From Gemmatimonadota bacterium (lineage in GTDB: Bacteria > Gemmatimonadota > Gemmatimonadetes > Palauibacterales > Palauibacteraceae), in NCBI GenBank assembly GCA_046757885.1, contig JBHHZD010000006.1:14914-78913 (forward strand): 64,000 nucleotides of DNA, given 5' to 3'. The position numbers were made by a program, and so were the translations under genes. Positions 41,045 to 48,587 of the stretch are shown here, piece by piece. Position 1 is the first letter of the stretch, and the number at the start of each line of letters is the position of its first letter. The notes beneath the pieces are model-generated. The model was not told where the DNA came from. It was given only the letters and a program-made list of their open reading frames with translations, and searched no databases.

Positions 41045-42775
41045 GTGAGCCTGACCTTTTCCGTAAACGAGCGCTGCACGTCCTGCATGGCCTGCGTGCG
41101 CGTATGCCCGGTAGAGGCGATCTCGGTCTCGGGCGAAGAGGTCGCGATCCACGAGGAGACGTGCATCGAGTGCGGCCTCTGCGTTCCCGCCTGCCACCAC
41201 GAGGCCATCGACGTCGTCGGAGATCTTCCCGGTGGAGCCGAAGCCATCCGCGATGAGAAGGCGCTGTTGATCCTCCCCACGGAAGTCACGGTGTTCTTTT
41301 TCCCGGCCACGCCCGAACAGATCATCAACGCGTGCTACGACCTGGGCTTCGATGGCGTCTTCTTCGAGGCCGTTGGCGATGAGCTCGTGGCCGGAGAATA
41401 CCTGCGCATCTGGAGGGACGAGGGACCACGGGCGTGGATTCGGTCCACGAGCCCGATCGTCGTGGATTACTGCCGGACCCGGCTCCCCGAGCTCCTTCCC
41501 TTCCTCGCCCCGGTCGTCACCCCCGCGGTCGCGCTGGCCCGTCACCTGGGTGAGTTCGCGGCACAGGGCTACCGCATCGTCTACGCCGGCCTCGGGACTC
41601 CCGGCTCCAATGGAAGCCTGATCGGCATCGACGACTGCATCTCCTTGTCCGAGCTCGAACAGGTGATGGCGGAGGTCGACGCGAGTCCCGCGTCGCAGCC
41701 GCTCACGCTGACGCGGATCCCGCCCGAACGTCGTCGTCACCTGTCGCTCGCCGGCGGTCTGCCGCGAGCGATGCTCGATGCTCAGACGCTGTCAGCTCGT
41801 GGATTCCAGCGCAGGCGAGGACTCGAGAGCCTGGGAGCGGTGGCGCGGGCCGTGATCGGAGAAGAGTCGCCGCTGGGTTTCGTGGACGTCCTTCCGTTCG
41901 AAGGAAATCTCGGGCATCCGGCTTTCGGCCCCGATGAGGATCTGTACTGGCGGAAGACGATCGCCGAGCTCGCGGAGCCCCAACGGGCGGAGAGTCCCGT
42001 GGTGGAGCGGTCGTCCGACCTGGACCTCGGGGCGACGTTCCGGCCGAAACACGAGACGCTGCCGACACCCGACCCGGAAGAGGTCCAGCGCGTGCTCGCA
42101 CAGATCGGCATGACGCCGTCCGGACGGTACTGGAACACCGGCTCCTGCGGCCACGCGACGTGCCTGGAGTTCGCCCAGGCCGTGGCCCGCGGGCGCTCGA
42201 CCCTGTCCCTGTGCCCGATCTACCTGAACCGCCAGTACGAGAGGGCTTCCGAAGATGCCCTCCACGACGGTCTCACGGGCGTGTTCACCTATCGCGTCCT
42301 GGAGGAGCGACTCGCGGAAGAGGTCTCGAGAGCGAACCGCACGGGAACGTCGATCGCGGTCCTGTTCATCGATCTGGACAAGTTCAAGGACGTGAACGAC
42401 ATCTTCGGCCACGGCGTGGGAAACCTGATCCTTACCGGTGTTGCGAAGATTCTGGGTGAAGCGATACGCTCAACCGACATCGCGTGCCGCTACGGTGGCG
42501 ACGAGTTCGTCGTCATTCTCGTCAACCCGGATCGACCCGGTGCGGCAGGGGTTGCGGAGGAGATTCGGCGTCGGGTGGAGGACTTCAAGGTTCCGACGCC
42601 CGATGGGGAGGCGGGGGTTACGCTCAGCATCGGGCTCGCGTATCATTCCGGAGCCCCGCGGTCGAATCTGACGAGTGAAGTCCTCATGGCAGAGGCCGAC
42701 GCCTCGCTGTACGTGGCGAAGGCGCACGGCGGCAATGCCGTTCACCCTGCAGTGGAAGGTGAGCTCGTTCGATGA
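41045..42775 (+). CDS. sensory diguanylate cyclase: 2x[4Fe-4S] ferredoxin + [FeFe]-hydrogenase-like (HydA large-subunit-type) domain + extra Cys cluster + GGDEF
   Basis: N-terminal CTSCMACVRVCP and CIECGLCVPAC (two ferredoxin motifs). Hydrogenase-like core with conserved Cys (FFFPATPEQIINACYDLGFDGVFFEAVGDEL..., TSPIVVDYC). Additional C-x-H-x2-C-x14-C Cys/His segment NTGSCGHATCLEFAQAVARGRSTLSLCP. C-terminal GGDEF with intact site RYGGDEF and DIFGHGVGN. Confidence 0.8.
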   Translation: MSLTFSVNERCTSCMACVRVCPVEAISVSGEEVAIHEETCIECGLCVPACHHEAIDVVGDLPGGAEAIRDEKALLILPTEVTVFFFPATPEQIINACYDLGFDGVFFEAVGDELVAGEYLRIWRDEGPRAWIRSTSPIVVDYCRTRLPELLPFLAPVVTPAVALARHLGEFAAQGYRIVYAGLGTPGSNGSLIGIDDCISLSELEQVMAEVDASPASQPLTLTRIPPERRRHLSLAGGLPRAMLDAQTLSARGFQRRRGLESLGAVARAVIGEESPLGFVDVLPFEGNLGHPAFGPDEDLYWRKTIAELAEPQRAESPVVERSSDLDLGATFRPKHETLPTPDPEEVQRVLAQIGMTPSGRYWNTGSCGHATCLEFAQAVARGRSTLSLCPIYLNRQYERASEDALHDGLTGVFTYRVLEERLAEEVSRANRTGTSIAVLFIDLDKFKDVNDIFGHGVGNLILTGVAKILGEAIRSTDIACRYGGDEFVVILVNPDRPGAAGVAEEIRRRVEDFKVPTPDGEAGVTLSIGLAYHSGAPRSNLTSEVLMAEADASLYVAKAHGGNAVHPAVEGELVR

Positions 42776-43485
42776 CGCCTGAAGAGAGGGAAGCCGGACC
42801 CGAGGTGATGGGTCTGGATCCGTGGGGCCTCCGACGCATCGAGAAGCTTCTGGCGAGCCTCGACGGCGTCGATTCGATGAAGATCGTCCCCGACGGTCAC
42901 GGGGGCATCGACGAGATCCACGTTCTCAGCAGCTCATCGCTCGGCCCCAAGCAGATCGTGCGTAACATCGAATCGGCCCTGCTGGCCGAGTTCGGCCTTC
43001 AGATCGACCACAGGAAGATCTCGATCGCCCGCGTCAAGGCTCCTGAGATCGAGGCCGCTCCCGTGCCGGAAGTCACGCCCTCTCCTGCCGCGCGCGCGGG
43101 CGAGCGCCGCATACTTCTCGACAGCGTCCAGATCGAGCGACGCGCGGGTCAGACGGTGAGTTGTCGCGTCGAGCTCCTCGGCGGGTCCAACAGCTGGGTC
43201 GGCGAGGCGGATGGCCCCGATTTCGAGCAATCCCGCCTGGATGTCGCCGCCACGGCCGCGCTCACCGCCCTGCAACAGGCCTCGGATTCCGACGCGATTC
43301 TTTCGCTGAACGGCATCGCTCGCGCGGAGTTGTTCGGTCGCAACCTCGTCATCGCCGTGATCCACGGCCGCTCCGGACGCGAGTTCGCCTCCCTGGCGGG
43401 CATCGCTACCGTGAAGGACTCGCCGGAAGAGGCCGCGGTGCTGGCGTGCCTCCAGGCCACGAATCGCTGGGCGGACGGCCGCTAA
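42772..43485 (+). CDS. hypothetical protein translationally coupled (ATGA) to the sensory diguanylate cyclase
   Basis: 237-aa ORF in a consistent frame; no recognised motif. Confidence 0.5.
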   Translation: MTPEEREAGPEVMGLDPWGLRRIEKLLASLDGVDSMKIVPDGHGGIDEIHVLSSSSLGPKQIVRNIESALLAEFGLQIDHRKISIARVKAPEIEAAPVPEVTPSPAARAGERRILLDSVQIERRAGQTVSCRVELLGGSNSWVGEADGPDFEQSRLDVAATAALTALQQASDSDAILSLNGIARAELFGRNLVIAVIHGRSGREFASLAGIATVKDSPEEAAVLACLQATNRWADGR

Positions 43486-43636
43486 TCCACGACAGTCGGT
43501 TGCGTTGCGACGCTTGGTTCCTTCTATTTATCGGGTGTCAGGGGCGCGGTCCGCCGTCTGGATACCGGGATGTGGGGATCTCGCCGTGCGCCGCAATTCA
43601 GTCGAGAGGTCGAATCTCCAGTCTATAATAGAAAGA

Positions 43637-43819
43637 TACCCCCAATCTCTGCGACGCTGCTGAGCTGAGCGGAGCGATCCTCCGAGCGGAGCTGAAGCAT
43701 ACCCTATAGCGGCTTGGGTATGACTTCCTTACGAAAGGAGGTGAGCTCTATGGGCTCTCTTTGGCTTGTCTTGCTGCTAGGCGGCACCGTTAGGTGGTAA
43801 GACGTAGAGATTGGGGGTA
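43637..43819 (+). promoter_or_regulatory. structured leader of the HD-GYP gene: 14-bp perfect long-range inverted repeat enclosing a 16-codon uORF
   Basis: tacccccaatctct (43637..43650) pairs with agagattgggggta (43806..43819), extendable to about 17 bp with G-U. The right arm contains the G-rich SD-like stretch 11 nt upstream of the HD-GYP ATG (43830). TATAAT at 43624..43629 immediately upstream of the left arm. Confidence 0.4.
43750..43800 (+). CDS. 16-aa hydrophobic upstream ORF (MGSLWLVLLLGGTVRW)
   Basis: Strong SD AAGGAGGTG 7 nt upstream of the ATG; TAA stop 5 nt before the right arm of the long-range stem. Confidence 0.35.
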   Translation: MGSLWLVLLLGGTVRW

Positions 43820-43829
43820 GCTGTATCAG

Positions 43830-45167
43830 ATGGCGCTAGACAAGAAACTCCGAAGGCTAATCGCGGGTGTCGCCTCGGCGGCTGTCCTCGTGACGGTCTT
43901 GGTCTTTCGCTTCTTCCCTTCTCCGCTTACTCAGCGCTCACTGCTGGCTTTCCTTACCCTCCTAGCGCTCAGCACGCTGAGCATGATGCTGTACCTAAAG
44001 TTCACGGAGTCGGGCTCGACGACGTCTATGGACTTCGTGCCGGAGCTGGGTGCGATCCTGCTGCTGGGCCCCGCGGGCGCCGTAGCCGTCACCTTGGCTT
44101 CGGAGCTGGTCTCTCATCTGTTCCTCTATCGTGAGAAGGCCCTGTTCAAGAAGGTCTTTAACACGGCGCAACTAGTTCTCGCGGTGGCGGCGGCTGGTGT
44201 AGTCTACGTCGCTTTTACAGGTACTCCGAGTCTGACAGATCTGCAGTTTCGTTCGACGCTGCCGCCGTTCATACTTGCCGTTCTGGTGTACTTTGCGGTC
44301 AATACGGGCACGGTAGCGTATGTGGTATCGCTCTCCGAGGGAAGGCCTTACCTGGAGTGCTGGCGGGGGATAACAGCGGGCTTGATCGTCTTCGATGTGG
44401 CGATGAGCCCCCTGGCCTATGTTGTGGCGTACCTTTACGTGCAGTTCAATCCTCTAGCCCTCATGCTCGCCATCATTCCGCTCATCGGACTGCGCTACAG
44501 CTACGGCATCAACTTCGAGCTTCGGCAGCTGAACACTGATCTTCTTCGGTTGATGGTCAAGACGATCGAGGCCCAGGATCCGTACACTTCGGGACACTCC
44601 ATAAGGGTGGCGGAGACCGCACGCGCCATAGCTCGAGCCCTGAAAGTAAAGCCCAAAGAAGCTGAGATCATTGAGACTGCGGCCTTGCTTCACGACATCG
44701 GAAAGATTGACGTTGCATACAGCGAGATCCTCCGTCAGAAGGGGCCATTGAGTGCCGAGCAGCGGGAACTTATTCGAGCTCACCCTGATCGCGGTGTCGA
44801 TATTATCAAGTCGATTCGGAGCATTGATCCCGAGGTGCTAAGGTGTGTCCGATACCACCATGAACGATGGGACGGAGACGGTTACCCGGTCGGGCTTGAA
44901 GGCGAAGCAATCCCGCGCGGTGCTCGGATTATTGGAGTCTGCGATACGATCGATGCGATGACCACGGCCCGTCCCTATCGAGGAGCGCTGCCTGTAGAAG
45001 TTGTGCGTGAAGAACTGCAGAAGCACAGTGGTGGTCAGTTTGATCCTGCGGTCGTCACGGCTATCCTCGCCACGGATGTCCTCGAAAAGATAGACGTTCC
45101 TCAACCTCGGCCCAGATCTGGTGGCCAGCGTCTAGCAGGTATCGCCCCGATCAAAGGAAGAGACTAG
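43830..45167 (+). CDS. HD-GYP domain c-di-GMP phosphodiesterase with N-terminal multi-TM sensor domain
   Basis: About 8 TM helices, then the HD-GYP catalytic domain: GHSIRVAETA, LLHDIGK, HHERWDGDGYP (GYP), DTIDAMTTARPYR. Confidence 0.85.
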   Translation: MALDKKLRRLIAGVASAAVLVTVLVFRFFPSPLTQRSLLAFLTLLALSTLSMMLYLKFTESGSTTSMDFVPELGAILLLGPAGAVAVTLASELVSHLFLYREKALFKKVFNTAQLVLAVAAAGVVYVAFTGTPSLTDLQFRSTLPPFILAVLVYFAVNTGTVAYVVSLSEGRPYLECWRGITAGLIVFDVAMSPLAYVVAYLYVQFNPLALMLAIIPLIGLRYSYGINFELRQLNTDLLRLMVKTIEAQDPYTSGHSIRVAETARAIARALKVKPKEAEIIETAALLHDIGKIDVAYSEILRQKGPLSAEQRELIRAHPDRGVDIIKSIRSIDPEVLRCVRYHHERWDGDGYPVGLEGEAIPRGARIIGVCDTIDAMTTARPYRGALPVEVVREELQKHSGGQFDPAVVTAILATDVLEKIDVPQPRPRSGGQRLAGIAPIKGRD

Positions 45168-48100
45168 AGCCGGCCTTGTGACTTAGCGTCTGCGGCGTAG
45201 CGCCACCGCCGAAAGAACCCTACGAACCAAAGAAGGTTCGTCTCCCTTAGAGACTTACGCAGGGCCTCTTTGTTGGCGGCCTCGGGTGGACAGTTGTCCC
45301 GGCCATAAAAAGAGTTTCCGATCCAAAGGAGCTTCAGATAACTAGGGGTGTCCTGCAGGCGCTCCTTCTCGGCGACTTCAAAAAACCGGTCCGATGATCT
45401 CGCACACTGTGCTTGGAGGCTCGTATACGCGCGGAACCACTGCACCTTGAACCTCTCCTGCACGCCGCCCGACTCATCCGGTATGTCTAAGAGGCTCATG
45501 GAATTTCTCACCGCTGCCAAGTCGCCTCGCTGGAGTGAGGTGAGACCCACGCACGCAGTAAGCTCTGGTATGAACCCGATCGAATGATTGGAAGAAGCAA
45601 TTGCGAGACACTTAGAGTACTGTTCGGCTGCTTCAGCCGACTTTCCTTGGTAAAACAGTGCGTTGGCCTTATTGATGCTTAGCGGAAGTACTACATCTAG
45701 GGTCACGGGTACATCGTGCTGTATGTCCTCTACTCGCTTGGTGACGCTGTTGAACTCTTCCCACTTGCCCTGCTCCAAGTAGCAACATGCAAGATTGTTC
45801 AGTAGCCAGCTTAGCTCGACCAAGTCGTTCCGCTTGGTAGCCAAGTCGATTGCTACCTTGATCTCGTGTTCCGCAATATCCCACTCGGCCCTCCGAGTCT
45901 GAATGAGCCCTCGAAAGAGCTGGACTCTTCCGGCAAGCCTGGTGGGAACGTCCTTTATTAAGGAGGAGATTGCCTCGACCTGCTCGAGAGCCTTTTCGGC
46001 TGTTTCGAAAAAGGCATAGTACGCGGCTAGCGAGCATGCCGCGGAAACGGAGGCGATTGCAGTCAGCGTCCCAGCTTCCCTCCCCTCTGAGAGAAGCCTC
46101 CTGATCGTTACTGCGTTGGAAGTAGCAAGAGCGCTGTCCGCCTGCCGCATCGCGATCTTGAGACTCCAGTGAAGTCGCTCCATTTCGCTCTCGAGCCGTC
46201 CCCTAGGCTCCTGAATGTCCCCAATCTCAAGCGGCAAAGCGTCGACAAGTTGGCGACCAAGCGTCCACTCCGCTCGCTCAACTAGGGCCTTCACAACGCT
46301 CAACTTCACCGCGATGCGTTCTTCGAGGGGCATGTTGGGGTCGAGGACGAGCATCCGGTCGAAGTGCTCCTGCGCGGACTGTAGCTGCGCCGTGGACAGC
46401 TCGGAGTCCGCGAGGATTCGGAGCGCCCGCACCGTTTCATCGCGGGTTCGGGACGTGCTCACGGCGAGAGCCGCCATATGCGAGGCTTCCAGATGGCCGC
46501 CGGCTTCACTCGCCTCGCGGGCGGCTCGTATGGCGCAGTCGAATGCCTTCTCCCGGTCCCCTCCGAGTCGGTAGTGGCGGGCCAGCGTGGCGAAACCGGT
46601 GTCCGGTTCTGCGCAGAGGAGTCGGGCCGCCGCACTGTGAAGGGCGGCGCGCTGCATCGAGGTCAGCTGGCCGTAGACATACTCCCGGGTGATGTCGTTC
46701 ACGAACTCCACCCGGTCCTCGTCGTCCTGAATGAGGCCCCGAGCGTACAGATCTTCGCCCAGCGCGGCGCATTCTCCCAGTGAGATGTTGGAGACCGATG
46801 ACACATTGCGGGGCGTGGCGTATCGTTCCAGCACTGCGATCGATCGGAGCAGATGTAGCGATCGATCCGAGAGGCCCTGAAGGCGGATCCGGAAGACCTC
46901 GCTGAGGCGGGCATTCGTGAGCAAAGCCCACACGCGAGCCTTTTCCGCCCACTCGGCCGAGCTGACGGCGGCTCGAAAAACTTCCAGCGCGTAGAACGGG
47001 TTCCCTGCGGAGAGGTGCTGGGCCAGGGACACGGCCGCCGTACCTTCGGCGTCGGGTCTCACGCACAGGACGAGACTCGCGATCTGGTCTTCCGTGAGGG
47101 GTCCGAGCGTAAGTGTCTCGCTTCGGCCGCCGGCGACGTACCCGGCGACCGGAGGCGCGCTGGCGTTGACCCTGTCTCCGCGAACCGTGCGGAACGTCGT
47201 GATCAGGAGGAATGGCTGCTCCGCCAGCCGGCGAGCGATGCAGTGGAGCAGGGATGCGGACGTCGCGTCGATCCACTGAACATCCTCCACAACCCACACG
47301 ATCGGCTGTCGTGTCGCCGCCATCTTCAAGAGATCAGCGACTTCCTCGTACAGCCGCCTCCTCCACGCCTCGGGATCCGGAGCATCGGTCTCCTCGTCTT
47401 CGAGGAAGTCGTCGAACTCGGGAAACAGGTGGCCGAGGCGCGTGAACGCTTCGGACCCCGGGGCCAGCTCGCGCGCCACACGGCCCGCGACCGGCCTGAG
47501 GCCGTCGACGACGGGGCCATAGGGTATGTCTGCCTCCGCTGGATAGCAGCGACTCTCCAGGCACTGGACGGGCTCGACGCCCAGGGAGTGCACGAACGCC
47601 TTCACCAGTCGTGATTTTCCGATGCCTCCTTCGCCGCGGACGACGACCGTCGAGCCGCCGCCTCGACCCAGGTTGCGGGCTCGCGTTCGGAGGAACTCGA
47701 GCTCCTCTTCGCGCCCGATGAGGGGGAGCTCCGCGTCCTCGTCGAGGTCGCCGGTCGGGCGGGCGGGCGGCGTGGAGCGGATCCGCTCCGCGAGGGCGCG
47801 TGTCTCGCTGGAGAAGCCACCGGGAAGCTCGGCCTCGAGTCGCCTGTCCGTTTCCTCGAAGTGCTGCAGGGCCGACTCTCGATCACCGTGCAGCCACAGC
47901 CCACGCATCAGGGCGCGGTGTGCTAGCTCATCCAGCGGATCGATCTCGACGAGCTTCATCGCCGCGATGCACATCTCGCCCCAGAGTCCGCGCGAATCAC
48001 ACTGCTCCACGTATCGGCGCAGCGTCACGCGACTGAGGCGCTGCAGGCGGACTCGCTCCGCTTCCAACCAGCGCTCGAAGTCGTCCGTGCCCGTGGACTG

Positions 48101-48472
48101 GAGGTTGCAGGCGAAGGGCCCGTTGCAGAACTCGATGGCCCGCTCAAGCTGTCCCCTCTTCAGCGCGAGCTCCAGCTCGCGGGCATCGTAGGAGATCCGC
48201 TGCGCGTCCAGACGCAGCTCCTCGGCCGGACCCGTCACGAAGGCGCCGTCGAGTTGCCCTCTCAGGTCGTAGATGGCCTGACTCAGCGAATGTCTCGCGC
48301 GCTCGGGAGGACTCGTCCAGAGAAGGGCCGCCAGCTCGCTTCGGGTGTGCACCCGGCCGGCGTTCGCCGTCAGGTACAGCAGGAGGGAAAGATGCTTGCG
48401 CGAGCGGAAGCGCACGACCTCCCCCGAGGGGTCCCGGAGTGACACGCCACCGAGGCTCTGGAGATGATACAT
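45164..48472 (-). CDS. SARP/AfsR-like STAND regulator: winged-helix DNA-binding + BTAD + P-loop NTPase + TPR array
   Basis: Start at MYHLQSLGGVSLRD (ATG 48472). OmpR-type wing HLSLLLYLTANAGRVHTRSELAALLW. BTAD helices, Walker A GEGGIGKSRL, Walker B VWVVEDVQWID, long C-terminal TPR region. Stop TAG overlaps the convergent HD-GYP stop in the palindrome CTAG. Confidence 0.8.
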   Translation of the reverse strand: MYHLQSLGGVSLRDPSGEVVRFRSRKHLSLLLYLTANAGRVHTRSELAALLWTSPPERARHSLSQAIYDLRGQLDGAFVTGPAEELRLDAQRISYDARELELALKRGQLERAIEFCNGPFACNLQSTGTDDFERWLEAERVRLQRLSRVTLRRYVEQCDSRGLWGEMCIAAMKLVEIDPLDELAHRALMRGLWLHGDRESALQHFEETDRRLEAELPGGFSSETRALAERIRSTPPARPTGDLDEDAELPLIGREEELEFLRTRARNLGRGGGSTVVVRGEGGIGKSRLVKAFVHSLGVEPVQCLESRCYPAEADIPYGPVVDGLRPVAGRVARELAPGSEAFTRLGHLFPEFDDFLEDEETDAPDPEAWRRRLYEEVADLLKMAATRQPIVWVVEDVQWIDATSASLLHCIARRLAEQPFLLITTFRTVRGDRVNASAPPVAGYVAGGRSETLTLGPLTEDQIASLVLCVRPDAEGTAAVSLAQHLSAGNPFYALEVFRAAVSSAEWAEKARVWALLTNARLSEVFRIRLQGLSDRSLHLLRSIAVLERYATPRNVSSVSNISLGECAALGEDLYARGLIQDDEDRVEFVNDITREYVYGQLTSMQRAALHSAAARLLCAEPDTGFATLARHYRLGGDREKAFDCAIRAAREASEAGGHLEASHMAALAVSTSRTRDETVRALRILADSELSTAQLQSAQEHFDRMLVLDPNMPLEERIAVKLSVVKALVERAEWTLGRQLVDALPLEIGDIQEPRGRLESEMERLHWSLKIAMRQADSALATSNAVTIRRLLSEGREAGTLTAIASVSAACSLAAYYAFFETAEKALEQVEAISSLIKDVPTRLAGRVQLFRGLIQTRRAEWDIAEHEIKVAIDLATKRNDLVELSWLLNNLACCYLEQGKWEEFNSVTKRVEDIQHDVPVTLDVVLPLSINKANALFYQGKSAEAAEQYSKCLAIASSNHSIGFIPELTACVGLTSLQRGDLAAVRNSMSLLDIPDESGGVQERFKVQWFRAYTSLQAQCARSSDRFFEVAEKERLQDTPSYLKLLWIGNSFYGRDNCPPEAANKEALRKSLRETNLLWFVGFFRRWRYAADAKSQGRL

Positions 48473-48587
48473 GTTCCGCCCCGCCGATGGGTCGCGTTGG
48501 ACGCCCGCCCCACACCGACCCCGCACGCATCCAGGGTGCACTCGGGCGTCATCGCAGCATCAACTAACACGTCGAAGGGCGCTTACG

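Follow-up and report, generated by a model that had tools for sequence, protein, structure and literature searches.

The gene for a c-di-GMP phosphodiesterase with MASE9 and HD_5/HD (HD-GYP) domains (Pfam matches; + strand, 43830..45167 of the 64-kb stretch of DNA analysed here, the window) is preceded by an RNA domain of about 190 nt, which is closed by a long-range helix, P1, and encloses a hydrophobic micro-ORF together with the Shine-Dalgarno (SD) sequence of that ORF. In no fewer than 47 distinct Gemmatimonadota loci the domain stands in this position before the MASE9-HD-GYP gene. HD-GYP phosphodiesterases set the c-di-GMP level and with it the switch between the motile and the biofilm state, and the element looks like an apparently undescribed control module, consisting of an RNA and a micropeptide, for such a second-messenger enzyme. 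With a probability of roughly 55%, we consider it a conserved, structured, bicistronic and doubly masked leader in which translation of HD-GYP depends on translation of the micro-ORF. Neither Rfam nor Pfam nor NCBIfam represents the module and the searchable literature yielded no paper on it, yet its conservation, with covariation, spans at least two phyla, and Thermus has a simpler analogue. It would provide a candidate cis-regulatory device of two masked ribosome-binding sites joined by a long-range helix as well as a candidate micro-protein partner for MASE9. Both the candidate RNA motif and the small-protein family it adds are new, and with ORFs of just 14-31 codons they escape routine annotation.

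The perfectly reverse-complementary arms reported in the preliminary description, tacccccaatctct (43637-43650) and agagattgggggta (43806-43819), are indeed present. Repeat search delimits the 5' arm as 43634..43653 and the 3' arm as 43803..43822, 20 nt of 90% complementarity lying 149 nt apart, and as + strand RNA P1 forms 16 pairs without interruption, one of them G-U. The core of the 5' arm (43637-43652) carries a C-run (43639-43643) which is nearly invariant among relatives, and the core of the 3' arm (43804-43819) a G-run (43813-43817). Within the 64-kb window the two arms are the sole occurrences of the P1 14-mer, with 0.2 occurrences expected at up to two mismatches. Folding of 43630-43835, the check originally proposed, gave -97.3 kcal/mol as compared with -71.9 ± 4.5 kcal/mol for 200 dinucleotide shuffles of the same segment (z = -5.68), none of which was as stable as the native sequence.

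A P1 duplex occurs in 47/47 loci; the medians are -36.3 kcal/mol and 23 pairs, where shuffles reach about -19 kcal/mol. The average is -36.7 kcal/mol for cognate arms and -25.4 kcal/mol for non-cognate ones, and in 42/47 loci the true partner ranks 1-5 of 47. Across the loci, G-U pairs outnumber A-C mismatches by 93 to 8, and compensatory changes on both sides affect 13 of the 16 pairs among 40 distinct sequences. In the covariance-model alignment 85.5% of the cells are paired (shuffles, 69.8%) and two-sided changes affect 185 cells (shuffles, 55.5), values reached by none of 500 shuffles; slid controls score 0.03-0.09, the observed alignment 0.35. These data show a genuine helix in an RNA read from the + strand. 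That stem and uORF are functional conserved features and not products of chance is upheld by their recurrence upstream of HD-GYP orthologues in the at least 47 distinct loci, by the covariation of the stem and by the coding signature of the uORF.

The element is single-copy and strictly syntenic before one orthologous gene across phyla, with the HD-GYP orthologue downstream of it in nearly all loci. In Halanaerobium the same module is built with unrelated P1 sequences (CUGACAGCAG or CUGAUGGCAUAU), UGAGCUUAG repeats, a P2 helix of GCCGACCUUCG/CGAAGGGAGGC and peptides that end in ...SSRW or ...VHWR. Thermus possesses a simpler form, exemplified by locus L006, where the sORF ends in GGGWVW and a local CCCCC/GGGGG hairpin downstream of it covers the HD-GYP SD. 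Homology across phyla was established by manual comparison; the covariance model derived from the close subgroup recovered just two class-C elements at E <= 0.01 and did not reach Halanaerobium or Thermus, and nhmmer with a single sequence found solely locus L001.

Within P1, the direct repeat GAGCGGAGC and the catacc..ggtatg hairpin (43698-43722) that had been noticed in the loop are both found. The two copies of the repeat (43667..43675 and 43684..43692, + strand) contain the AGCNNAG heptamer, which occurs 2.6 times per 5' domain versus 0.18 times in shuffles; its AGCG-AG form in the second copy is invariant in the alignments, and the middle dinucleotide changes in concert between phyla. Between the copies, in the window subgroup only, lies a CCUCC anti-SD mimic (43679..43683, + strand), whose partner in folds of the L001 type is the SD of the uORF. 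In other subgroups the second repeat constitutes the 5' strand of helix P2 and faces the SD strand GGAGGUGACGC, with the P2 consensus GCG-GA-GCC-AA-CCU / AGG-GA-GGU-GA-CGC. The P3 hairpin with its 3' GAC (43698..43724, + strand) pairs 43698-43704 with 43716-43722 around a loop with UAGCG; covariation extends to 7/7 pairs, 99.6% of the cells are paired, RNAalifold recovers the same helix, and in the GAC that follows A and C are invariant and G is nearly so. P4 is a local anti-SD/SD hairpin (43723..43742, + strand; ACUUCCUU-ACGA-AAGGAGGU) with 76.7% of the cells paired and covariation in 3/8 pairs; in the window it contributes 0.72 to the probability that the SD is paired. When P1 can form, the pairing between the 5' C-run and the micro-ORF SD that RNAalifold proposed on a MAFFT alignment has an ensemble probability of 0.00. 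A reading of the junction as sensing RNA draws on AGCG-AG, which is invariant, on the conserved GAC, on the AGCNNAG repeats with their concerted evolution and on tandem G-A pairs facing the SD. ARAGORN detected neither tRNA nor tmRNA.

The micro-ORF itself, with its consensus SD AAGGAGGUG (AAGGAGGTG; 43735..43743, + strand), is located in the loop as first described: its 16 codons (43750..43800, + strand; ATG at 43750, TAA at 43798-43800) encode MGSLWLVLLLGGTVRW, and 5 nt separate its stop codon from the perfectly matching part of the 3' arm. The uORF had been called strongly initiated; the consensus SD exists, with GGAGGUGA conserved among relatives, but its core is predicted to be paired in 47/47 loci (probability of being unpaired 0.00 in the window, mean 0.19 over the 47 loci), which makes the strength of initiation doubtful. 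Among relatives the frame is kept over a length range of 14-30 codons, the Gly and Thr codons vary synonymously, TAA, TAG and TGA all serve as stops, and pairwise differences in the last seven codons amount to 166/152/358 for the three codon positions. By these comparative signs the micro-ORF is clearly under coding selection and most probably translated. The peptides are hydrophobic (mean GRAVY +1.0) and carry Trp at position -1 or -2 in 45/47 cases; conservation is strongest in the last 6-7 residues with the C-terminal pattern ...G(G)xx(R/K)W, whereas towards the N-terminus both length and sequence are variable. A pure coupling device does not need such strong conservation on the peptide level. 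No Pfam-A or NCBIfam profile matched any of 10 distinct peptides of 22-31 residues at E <= 10, and the 30-31-residue versions in the protein collection are solely designated 'hypothetical protein' or unnamed.

The relation of the micro-ORF to its surroundings is constrained at the 3' end. The 3' strand of P1 begins at, or a few nt from, the micro-ORF stop codon, an adjacency maintained although the length of the ORF spans 14-30 codons. Between this stop codon and the HD-GYP start 20-55 nt are found, with all three frame offsets represented. A fusion to HD-GYP by read-through or frameshift was considered and rejected, as ATG 43830 is 80 nt from ATG 43750 and out of frame.

The 3' arm had been said to cover an SD-like stretch of the HD-GYP gene, and this is corroborated by the models: GGGGG at 43813-43817, 12 nt 5' of the ATG and in the window the sole SD-like run in front of HD-GYP, is predicted to be 100% paired, and in the window ensemble the probability of being unpaired is 0.00 for the G-run and 0.13 for the HD-GYP AUG. 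A G-run 6-19 nt before the HD-GYP start is present in 29/45 loci. In other subgroups an outer extension of P1 covers the start-codon region or SD of HD-GYP, such as the outer helix of GGUCCA with AUGGACC in the L001 subgroup. Counting against coupling, the HD-GYP SD is situated 20-40 nt beyond P1 in Halanaerobium and in about one third of the loci from Gemmatimonadota, where weaker outer pairings alone cover it. In the modelled free RNA both ribosome-binding sites are sequestered.

In the bicistronic reading favoured here, independent initiation at HD-GYP would be impossible. Ribosomes translating the micro-ORF would unwind P1 and the same ribosomes would reinitiate 20-55 nt downstream with the newly exposed G-run as SD, that is, by termination-reinitiation coupling, while translation of the micro-ORF would in turn be gated through opening of its own SD helix (P2/P4) by some trigger. 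The released peptide may also act with the membrane-embedded MASE9 domain. Translational coupling mediated by uORFs is an established mechanism in bacteria (PMC13285730). The more specific proposal that a ribosome terminating at the uORF exposes the HD-GYP ribosome-binding site fails in equilibrium models: with 43783-43810 blocked, the G-run is still paired and an outer helix of 9 bp and -16 kcal/mol remains, and the G-run of the window stays at 0.00 until the modelled block reaches 43813. Over 42 loci, a block spanning -15 to +12 around the stop codon left pairing of the HD-GYP initiation region unchanged (mean 0.41 to 0.42). As equilibrium models show no unmasking, the coupling model needs movement after termination or kinetic effects. 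A more far-reaching version, in which the P2/P3/P4 junction would be a new ligand- or protein-responsive sensing RNA (for c-di-GMP or pGpG, for example) gating a two-RBS relay over c-di-GMP degradation, and the released W-terminated micro-peptide the long-sought intramembrane partner or ligand of MASE9, appears doubtful.

The attenuation suggested earlier is, in its transcriptional form, without support, as no U-tract lies 3' of P1 in the window, where P1 is followed by UAGCUGUAUCAG and the scan found no terminator at P1; a U-run 3' of P1 occurs in a minority of loci, e.g. L147 and L142. The TATAAT box described 5' of the stem does exist in the window as part of a promoter-like site TCGAGA-16-TATAAT (43602..43629, + strand; 10/12 in a consensus scan whose consensus may not fit Gemmatimonadota promoters), but is not conserved, as none of the 46 other loci has a -10-like hexamer at this position. 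The promoter-like site is, on this comparison, probably window-specific and outside the conserved element. In locus L002 the 5' arm begins 12 nt past the upstream stop codon; because of this spacing and the absence of the TATAAT in relatives, the element probably resides inside an operon mRNA with no conserved promoter of its own.

The upstream gene (42772..43485, + strand) encodes a 237-residue protein co-conserved with the module, which in Halanaerobiales is encoded downstream of the HD-GYP gene instead. The protein has no family match and no sequence match in the PDB; AlphaFold models with pLDDT of 85 and 91 resemble the ring-building / CDF-CTD alpha-beta-beta-alpha-beta fold and the LeuA allosteric domain. 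As neither model contains an RNA-binding fold, the neighbour was discarded as an RNA-binding regulator of the repeats.

Among the alternatives, it is possible, although on the whole unlikely, that the micro-ORF simply encodes a functional small peptide of the membrane, which partners MASE9 or serves as its intramembrane ligand, and that P1 serves mRNA processing, stability or insulation, for instance as an RNase III-type duplex which excises or stabilises the micro-ORF segment. MASE9 has been proposed to bind a ligand within the membrane (bioRxiv 10.1101/2021.11.05.467447), which favours this explanation, as do the hydrophobicity and the C-terminal Trp conserved in three phyla, the length and near-perfection of P1 with its median of 23 pairs and the fact that a terminating ribosome unmasks nothing in the equilibrium models. 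The preliminary description had already named a small hydrophobic membrane peptide as an alternative. The Halanaerobium and Thermus versions, with 28-31 residues composed of MKK/MKR, about 20 hydrophobic residues and a polar W tail, look like single-pass membrane peptides, but the versions of 14-16 residues, that of the window included, are too short for a membrane span. Moreover, the recurrent placement of the HD-GYP SD or start codon within the helix or its extension, and the stop codon always abutting the 3' arm, are left unexplained by a membrane peptide.

The same position of the stop codon directly against P1 would also suit a nascent arrest peptide: ribosomes would stall on its G-x-x-(R/K)-W motif, at the stop or beside it and perhaps in response to a small molecule, and thereby hold P1 open and HD-GYP on, as in tnaC and erm leaders. 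Conservation concentrated in the last 6-7 residues beside the stop and peptides short enough to fit wholly inside the exit tunnel agree with stalling; however, a ribosome stalled at the stop leaves the G-run paired in the equilibrium model, the conserved N-terminal hydrophobicity would go without explanation and we know of no arrest peptide with sequence similarity to the micro-peptides. Arrest is judged quite unlikely.

A riboswitch-like or protein-binding sensor formed by the 5' domain, i.e. the P2/P3/P4 junction and the AGCNNAG repeats, recognizing for example c-di-GMP or its products with the ORF incidental to sensing, is judged distinctly improbable. Invariant junction nucleotides, closure by P1, the SD-sequestering helix, flanking genes that make and degrade c-di-GMP and the concerted shift of the middle dinucleotide of the repeats between phyla agree with such a sensor. 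Against it, a search of Rfam 15 at E <= 10, the c-di-GMP-I and -II riboswitches included, matched nothing over the element, either in the window or in 12 related loci, the ORF is clearly under coding selection and the co-conserved 237-residue protein is without an RNA-binding fold.

Hydrophobic peptides, end-to-end helices and an SD in an anti-SD hairpin are known from the hok, aapA1 and tisB mRNAs, and with its 16-residue hydrophobic peptide, end-to-end long-range helix and buried SD the element could be a type I toxin-antitoxin-like locus in which 5'-3' pairing and SD sequestration silence a toxin mRNA. This is very improbable in view of the strict synteny and single copy before one orthologous gene across phyla, in place of independent or multicopy occurrence, of a dependent cistron that comes next, of a context with neither PADLOC- nor TA-like features and of a - strand which between 43300 and 44000 has no promoter-like or terminator-like site in a scan whose consensus may be unsuited to promoters of Gemmatimonadota. 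A chance match or the termini of a miniature mobile element, to which terminal inverted repeats of 14-20 nt with about 190 bp between them and a GC content slightly below that of the flanks might point, are effectively refuted by the orthologous position in at least 47 loci, by the lack of a second copy in the window or the loci and by arms that covary with G-U far in excess of A-C.

Several known systems share parts of this architecture. Like the RNase III stems of rRNA operons, the element has distant arms that form a near-perfect duplex, about 20 bp or longer, and enclose a discrete unit, but its duplex contains or abuts translation signals. With the c-di-GMP-I and -II riboswitches it shares a P1-closed leader before a c-di-GMP turnover gene and a sequestered SD, whereas it has no covariance-model match to them and its P1 encloses an ORF with coding signature. 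Subunits of the KdpF/CydX type are likewise hydrophobic micro-proteins of up to 30 residues beside a possible membrane partner; here, in contrast, the ORF is placed within a covarying RNA structure and the Gemmatimonadota peptides, with 14-19 residues, lack the length of a transmembrane helix. The hok, aapA1, tisB and ibs toxin mRNAs resemble the element in the tiny hydrophobic ORF, the distant 5'-3' pairing and the SD buried by an anti-SD, from which it differs by its orthologous operon position, single copy, an enzyme gene next to it and no evident antisense RNA. Closest to the proposed coupling are leader ORFs such as those of ermC/ermB and cat/cmlA, secM-secA, mifM-yidC2 and uORF coupling (PMC13285730), in which a short ORF also precedes a base-paired downstream ribosome-binding site and the position of the ribosome on the leader ORF could free that site. 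Unlike in these systems, the helix here spans a long range (150-200 nt), with the entire ORF and its masked SD inside it, the peptide is hydrophobic, Trp-ended and conserved across phyla, and the gene that would be regulated encodes a c-di-GMP phosphodiesterase.

As outlined in the preliminary description, the 14-mer at 43637-43650 is the exact reverse complement of that at 43806-43819, a sequence without further occurrence anywhere in the window, and the repeat arms extend to 43634-43653 and 43803-43822 which, as + strand RNA, give an uninterrupted run of 16 pairs, including one G-U, in a long-range helix, P1. Equally present are the micro-ORF MGSLWLVLLLGGTVRW (43750-43800, +), its Shine-Dalgarno (SD) sequence AAGGAGGUG (43735-43743, +), the GAGCGGAGC repeat and the catacc/ggtatg hairpin, while the gene for the MASE9 and HD-GYP protein follows downstream at 43830-45167. 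The predicted fold of 43630-43835 has -97.3 kcal/mol, 5.7 SD below dinucleotide shuffles and equalled by 0 of 200 of them. A promoter-like TCGAGA-16-TATAAT site is found at 43602-43629. Other short complementarities are UCCUUCUAUU (43519-43528), 90% complementary to AAUAGAAAGA (43627-43636), a stretch that shares bases with the TATAAT box and directly adjoins the P1 5' arm, and 10 nt within the micro-ORF (CUUGUCUUGC, 43765-43774), 90% complementary to HD-GYP codons 3-5 (GCUAGACAAG, 43835-43844), which may be chance or an extra link between the cistrons.

The window derives from a Gemmatimonadota MAG; scanning genomes with the HD-GYP protein identified the orthologous loci L001-L003 (Gemmatimonadota, Longimicrobiales, Gemmatimonadales), and scanning metagenomes with aligned sequences of the neighbouring 237-residue protein added 80 more. 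Conservation upstream of HD-GYP orthologues is evident, as 47 distinct element copies could be extracted, on the same strand and directly 5' of the orthologue. Their shared 5'-to-3' order opens with an A-rich tract and a C-run, the 5' arm, followed by two to four AGCNNAG heptamers (2.6 per element versus 0.18 expected; 43659-43715 in the window), the last one within an invariant AGCG-AG, the variable hairpin P3 (43698-43704 with 43716-43722), a conserved GAC with invariant A and C, GGAGGUGA, the AUG of an ORF of 14-30 codons and the 3' arm, which starts at the micro-ORF stop codon or just past it and contains a G-run. The TATAAT box, noted before just 5' of the stem, is restricted to the window (0 of 46 other loci); since the C-run follows the upstream stop codon at anything from 12 to 326 nt, the element most likely lies within the operon mRNA. 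Several close relatives (L001, L089, L092, L094, L097, L099, L107) share a CCUUCUAUUU box approximately 35 nt past the upstream stop codon, and a conserved hairpin, CACGGGAAUCCCGCCUGCCCCGUG, lies about 40-70 nt upstream of the C-run in one subgroup (L105, L112, L134, L147).

Judged from comparison across loci, P1 and the inner helices are under RNA-level selection. A P1 duplex is predicted in every locus (RNAduplex, 47 loci; median -36.3 kcal/mol, 23 pairs), as compared to about -19 kcal/mol for shuffled arms; cognate arms pair with a mean of -36.7 versus -25.4 kcal/mol for non-cognate arms, and the true partner ranked 1-5 of 47 in 42 loci. With 93 G-U pairs, which far outnumber the 8 A-C mismatches in the P1 arms, the + strand is the folding strand. 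A covariance model built on a close subgroup gave 43 matches; the window has a single one, and the minus strand has none. In its alignment, standard-pair cells amount to 85.5% (shuffled 69.8%), cells altered on both sides to 185 (55.5) and the covariation score to 0.35 (0.13), values matched by 0 of 500 shuffles for any of the three measures, and sliding the 3' partners by 1-3 columns reduces the score to 0.03-0.09. Compensatory changes occur in 13 of 16 pairs of P1 (83.3% of cells paired), in all 7 of P3 (99.6%) and in 3 of 8 of P4 (76.7%), a local hairpin at 43723-43742. This alignment is fitted to the model's own structure; the cognate/non-cognate arm test is independent of it.

By its pattern of substitution the micro-ORF is coding, with selection on the protein. 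The frame 3' of the SD is open in all 47 elements (14-30 codons), with 42% U at the second codon position, a mean GRAVY of +1.0 and Trp as the last or second-last residue of 45 peptides. The last seven codons of 17 close relatives read G-G-T-(L/V)-(R/K)-W, with Gly encoded by GGC, GGT or GGA and Thr by ACC, ACT, ACG or ACA; all three stop codons TAA, TAG and TGA are used, and pairwise differences at codon positions 1, 2 and 3 number 166, 152 and 358. Pfam and NCBIfam models gave no match at E <= 10 to 10 distinct peptides of 22-31 residues, and versions of 30-31 residues appear in the protein collection solely as 'hypothetical protein' or without a name.

Halanaerobium saccharolyticum (L008) and related Bacillota MAGs (L161, L163, L164) carry the module with its parts in order: a long-range helix of 16-19 bp and unrelated sequence (AAUCUGACAGCAGAAA / UUUUUGCUGUCAGAUU, or AAUAUCUGAUGGCAUAUAU / its complement), UGAGC(C/U)UAG repeats, P2 (GCCGACCUUCG / CGAAGGGAGGC), and a small ORF, MKKLYIAITTALITFGTAISVLAESSRW or ...AETVHWR, ahead of the MASE9-HD-GYP gene. 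The middle dinucleotide of the heptamers, GG, GA or UG in Gemmatimonadota, is UU or CU in Halanaerobiales (L008, L161, L163, L164, 5' of the ORF), a concerted switch in all copies that might reflect a trans-acting factor or alternative registers of pairing. The Thermus arrangement is simpler, with the ORFs MKRLTLIGQSLIWALALVGLAVAAGGGWVW (L006) and MKMKKLIARVLVLLGSLIALGLAAGAATRWE (L014); in L006 the ORF's SD lies within a local anti-SD hairpin, and the HD-GYP SD, 10 nt 5' of the ATG, is masked by a local CCCCC/GGGGG hairpin. These layouts tie the element to the MASE9-HD-GYP gene and not to its neighbours.

The neighbours upstream of the element in the window are a 4Fe-4S/GGDEF gene and the gene of the 237-residue protein (42772-43485; 4283-4942 in L008, 2774-3391 in L161), which is always found next to the MASE9-HD-GYP gene, on its 5' side in Gemmatimonadota and on its 3' side in Halanaerobiales, including the Halanaerobium group. 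The protein has no sequence match in Pfam, NCBIfam or PDB; AlphaFold models (pLDDT 85 and 91) predict two domains, an N-terminal alpha-beta-beta-alpha-beta domain similar to the EscJ/PrgK ring-building motif and CDF-transporter C-terminal domains, and a C-terminal (beta-beta-beta-alpha)x2 domain similar to the allosteric amino-acid-binding domain of LeuA/citramalate synthase. The GGDEF cyclase gene (41045-42775) encodes an N-terminal 4Fe-4S/Fe-hydrogenase-like module, which suggests redox or iron sensing. L152, L154, L156, L157, L159 and L160 possess an extra gene between the 237-residue gene and the element (gap of about 800 nt), which, judged by eye from raw DNA, looks like an HTH plus receiver-like regulator; despite this insertion, the element still adjoins the HD-GYP gene. 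Past HD-GYP, a convergent gene (45164-48541, -) encodes a 1125-residue BTAD-AAA16-TPR regulator, and L001-L003 have a large convergent ORF of 931-971 residues at the same position.

The micro-ORF had been described as strongly initiated, which is doubtful, as its own SD is predicted to be sequestered: the core is paired in 47 of 47 elements (mean P(unpaired) 0.19; 0.00 in the window), either with the conserved repeat/anti-SD region or within P4. In one large subgroup the P2 consensus is GCG-GA-GCC-AA-CCU opposite AGG-GA-GGU-GA-CGC, which places the SD strand opposite invariant AGCGGAGC with two GA-containing internal loops. In the window, P(unpaired) is predicted as 0.00 for the HD-GYP G-run (43813-43817), 12 nt 5' of the ATG, and as 0.13 for the AUG; 29 of 45 loci have the G-run 6-19 nt ahead of the start. 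The L001 subgroup has its start about 24 nt further downstream, and a GGUCC(A) box approximately 20 nt 5' of the C-run (L001 2771-2776) is complementary to the start region AUGGACC (L001 3004-3010; both boxes also in L088, L089, L092, L094, L097, L099, L107), with which it covaries (GGGUCC with AUGGGACC in L089). With an upstream GGACC as alternative partner, in a local hairpin, the box looks like a two-state sequestor/anti-sequestor toggle. L001 also contains a start-stop mini-ORF, AUGUGA (2978-2983), 8 nt past the G-run and ahead of the real HD-GYP start, which sister loci do not conserve as a mini-ORF.

A covarying long-range helix hence surrounds a coding micro-ORF and borders on its stop codon, and the HD-GYP initiation signals lie within or next to this helix; both SDs are masked. 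Translation of HD-GYP would require ribosomes that first translated the micro-ORF and drove through P1, with reinitiation 20-55 nt downstream at the G-run during its transient exposure, while opening of P2/P4 by some trigger would gate micro-ORF translation; this coupling as a whole is assigned a probability of roughly 0.55. The strongest argument for a ribosome-helix interaction is the invariant juxtaposition of stop codon and helix despite length changes of 14-30 codons. The strongest argument against a simple one is the equilibrium model, in which a ribosome at the stop codon, proposed before to free the HD-GYP site, does not do so (mean P(unpaired) 0.41 to 0.42 over 42 loci); an outer helix of 9 bp (-16 kcal/mol) leaves the window's G-run fully paired for any block that stops short of 43813. 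Transcription attenuation finds no support in the window, where P1 is without terminator features.

Alternatively, though with clearly lower probability, the product may be a stand-alone micro-protein partner of MASE9, which is proposed to bind its ligand inside the membrane (bioRxiv 10.1101/2021.11.05.467447), with P1 serving processing or stability. A nascent-peptide stall sensor is improbable and a riboswitch-like or protein-binding sensor slightly more so; each of these three is compatible with coupling. A type I toxin is very unlikely, and chance or a mobile element can practically be dismissed.

No Rfam family matches the element at E <= 10 in the window or in 12 related loci, and none of the papers searched connects HD-GYP with a leader peptide, a uORF or a small protein; the element is a candidate for both a new RNA motif and a new family of micro-proteins. 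Its logic resembles uORF translational coupling in general (PMC13285730), and a leader ORF would control a helix-sequestered ribosome-binding site, a feature of the erm, cat, secM and mifM leaders; in RNA architecture it is similar to type I toxin mRNAs. Unlike in the systems compared, however, the helix encloses the entire leader ORF plus the ORF's own masked SD, the peptide is kept across phyla, and the regulated gene is a c-di-GMP phosphodiesterase.
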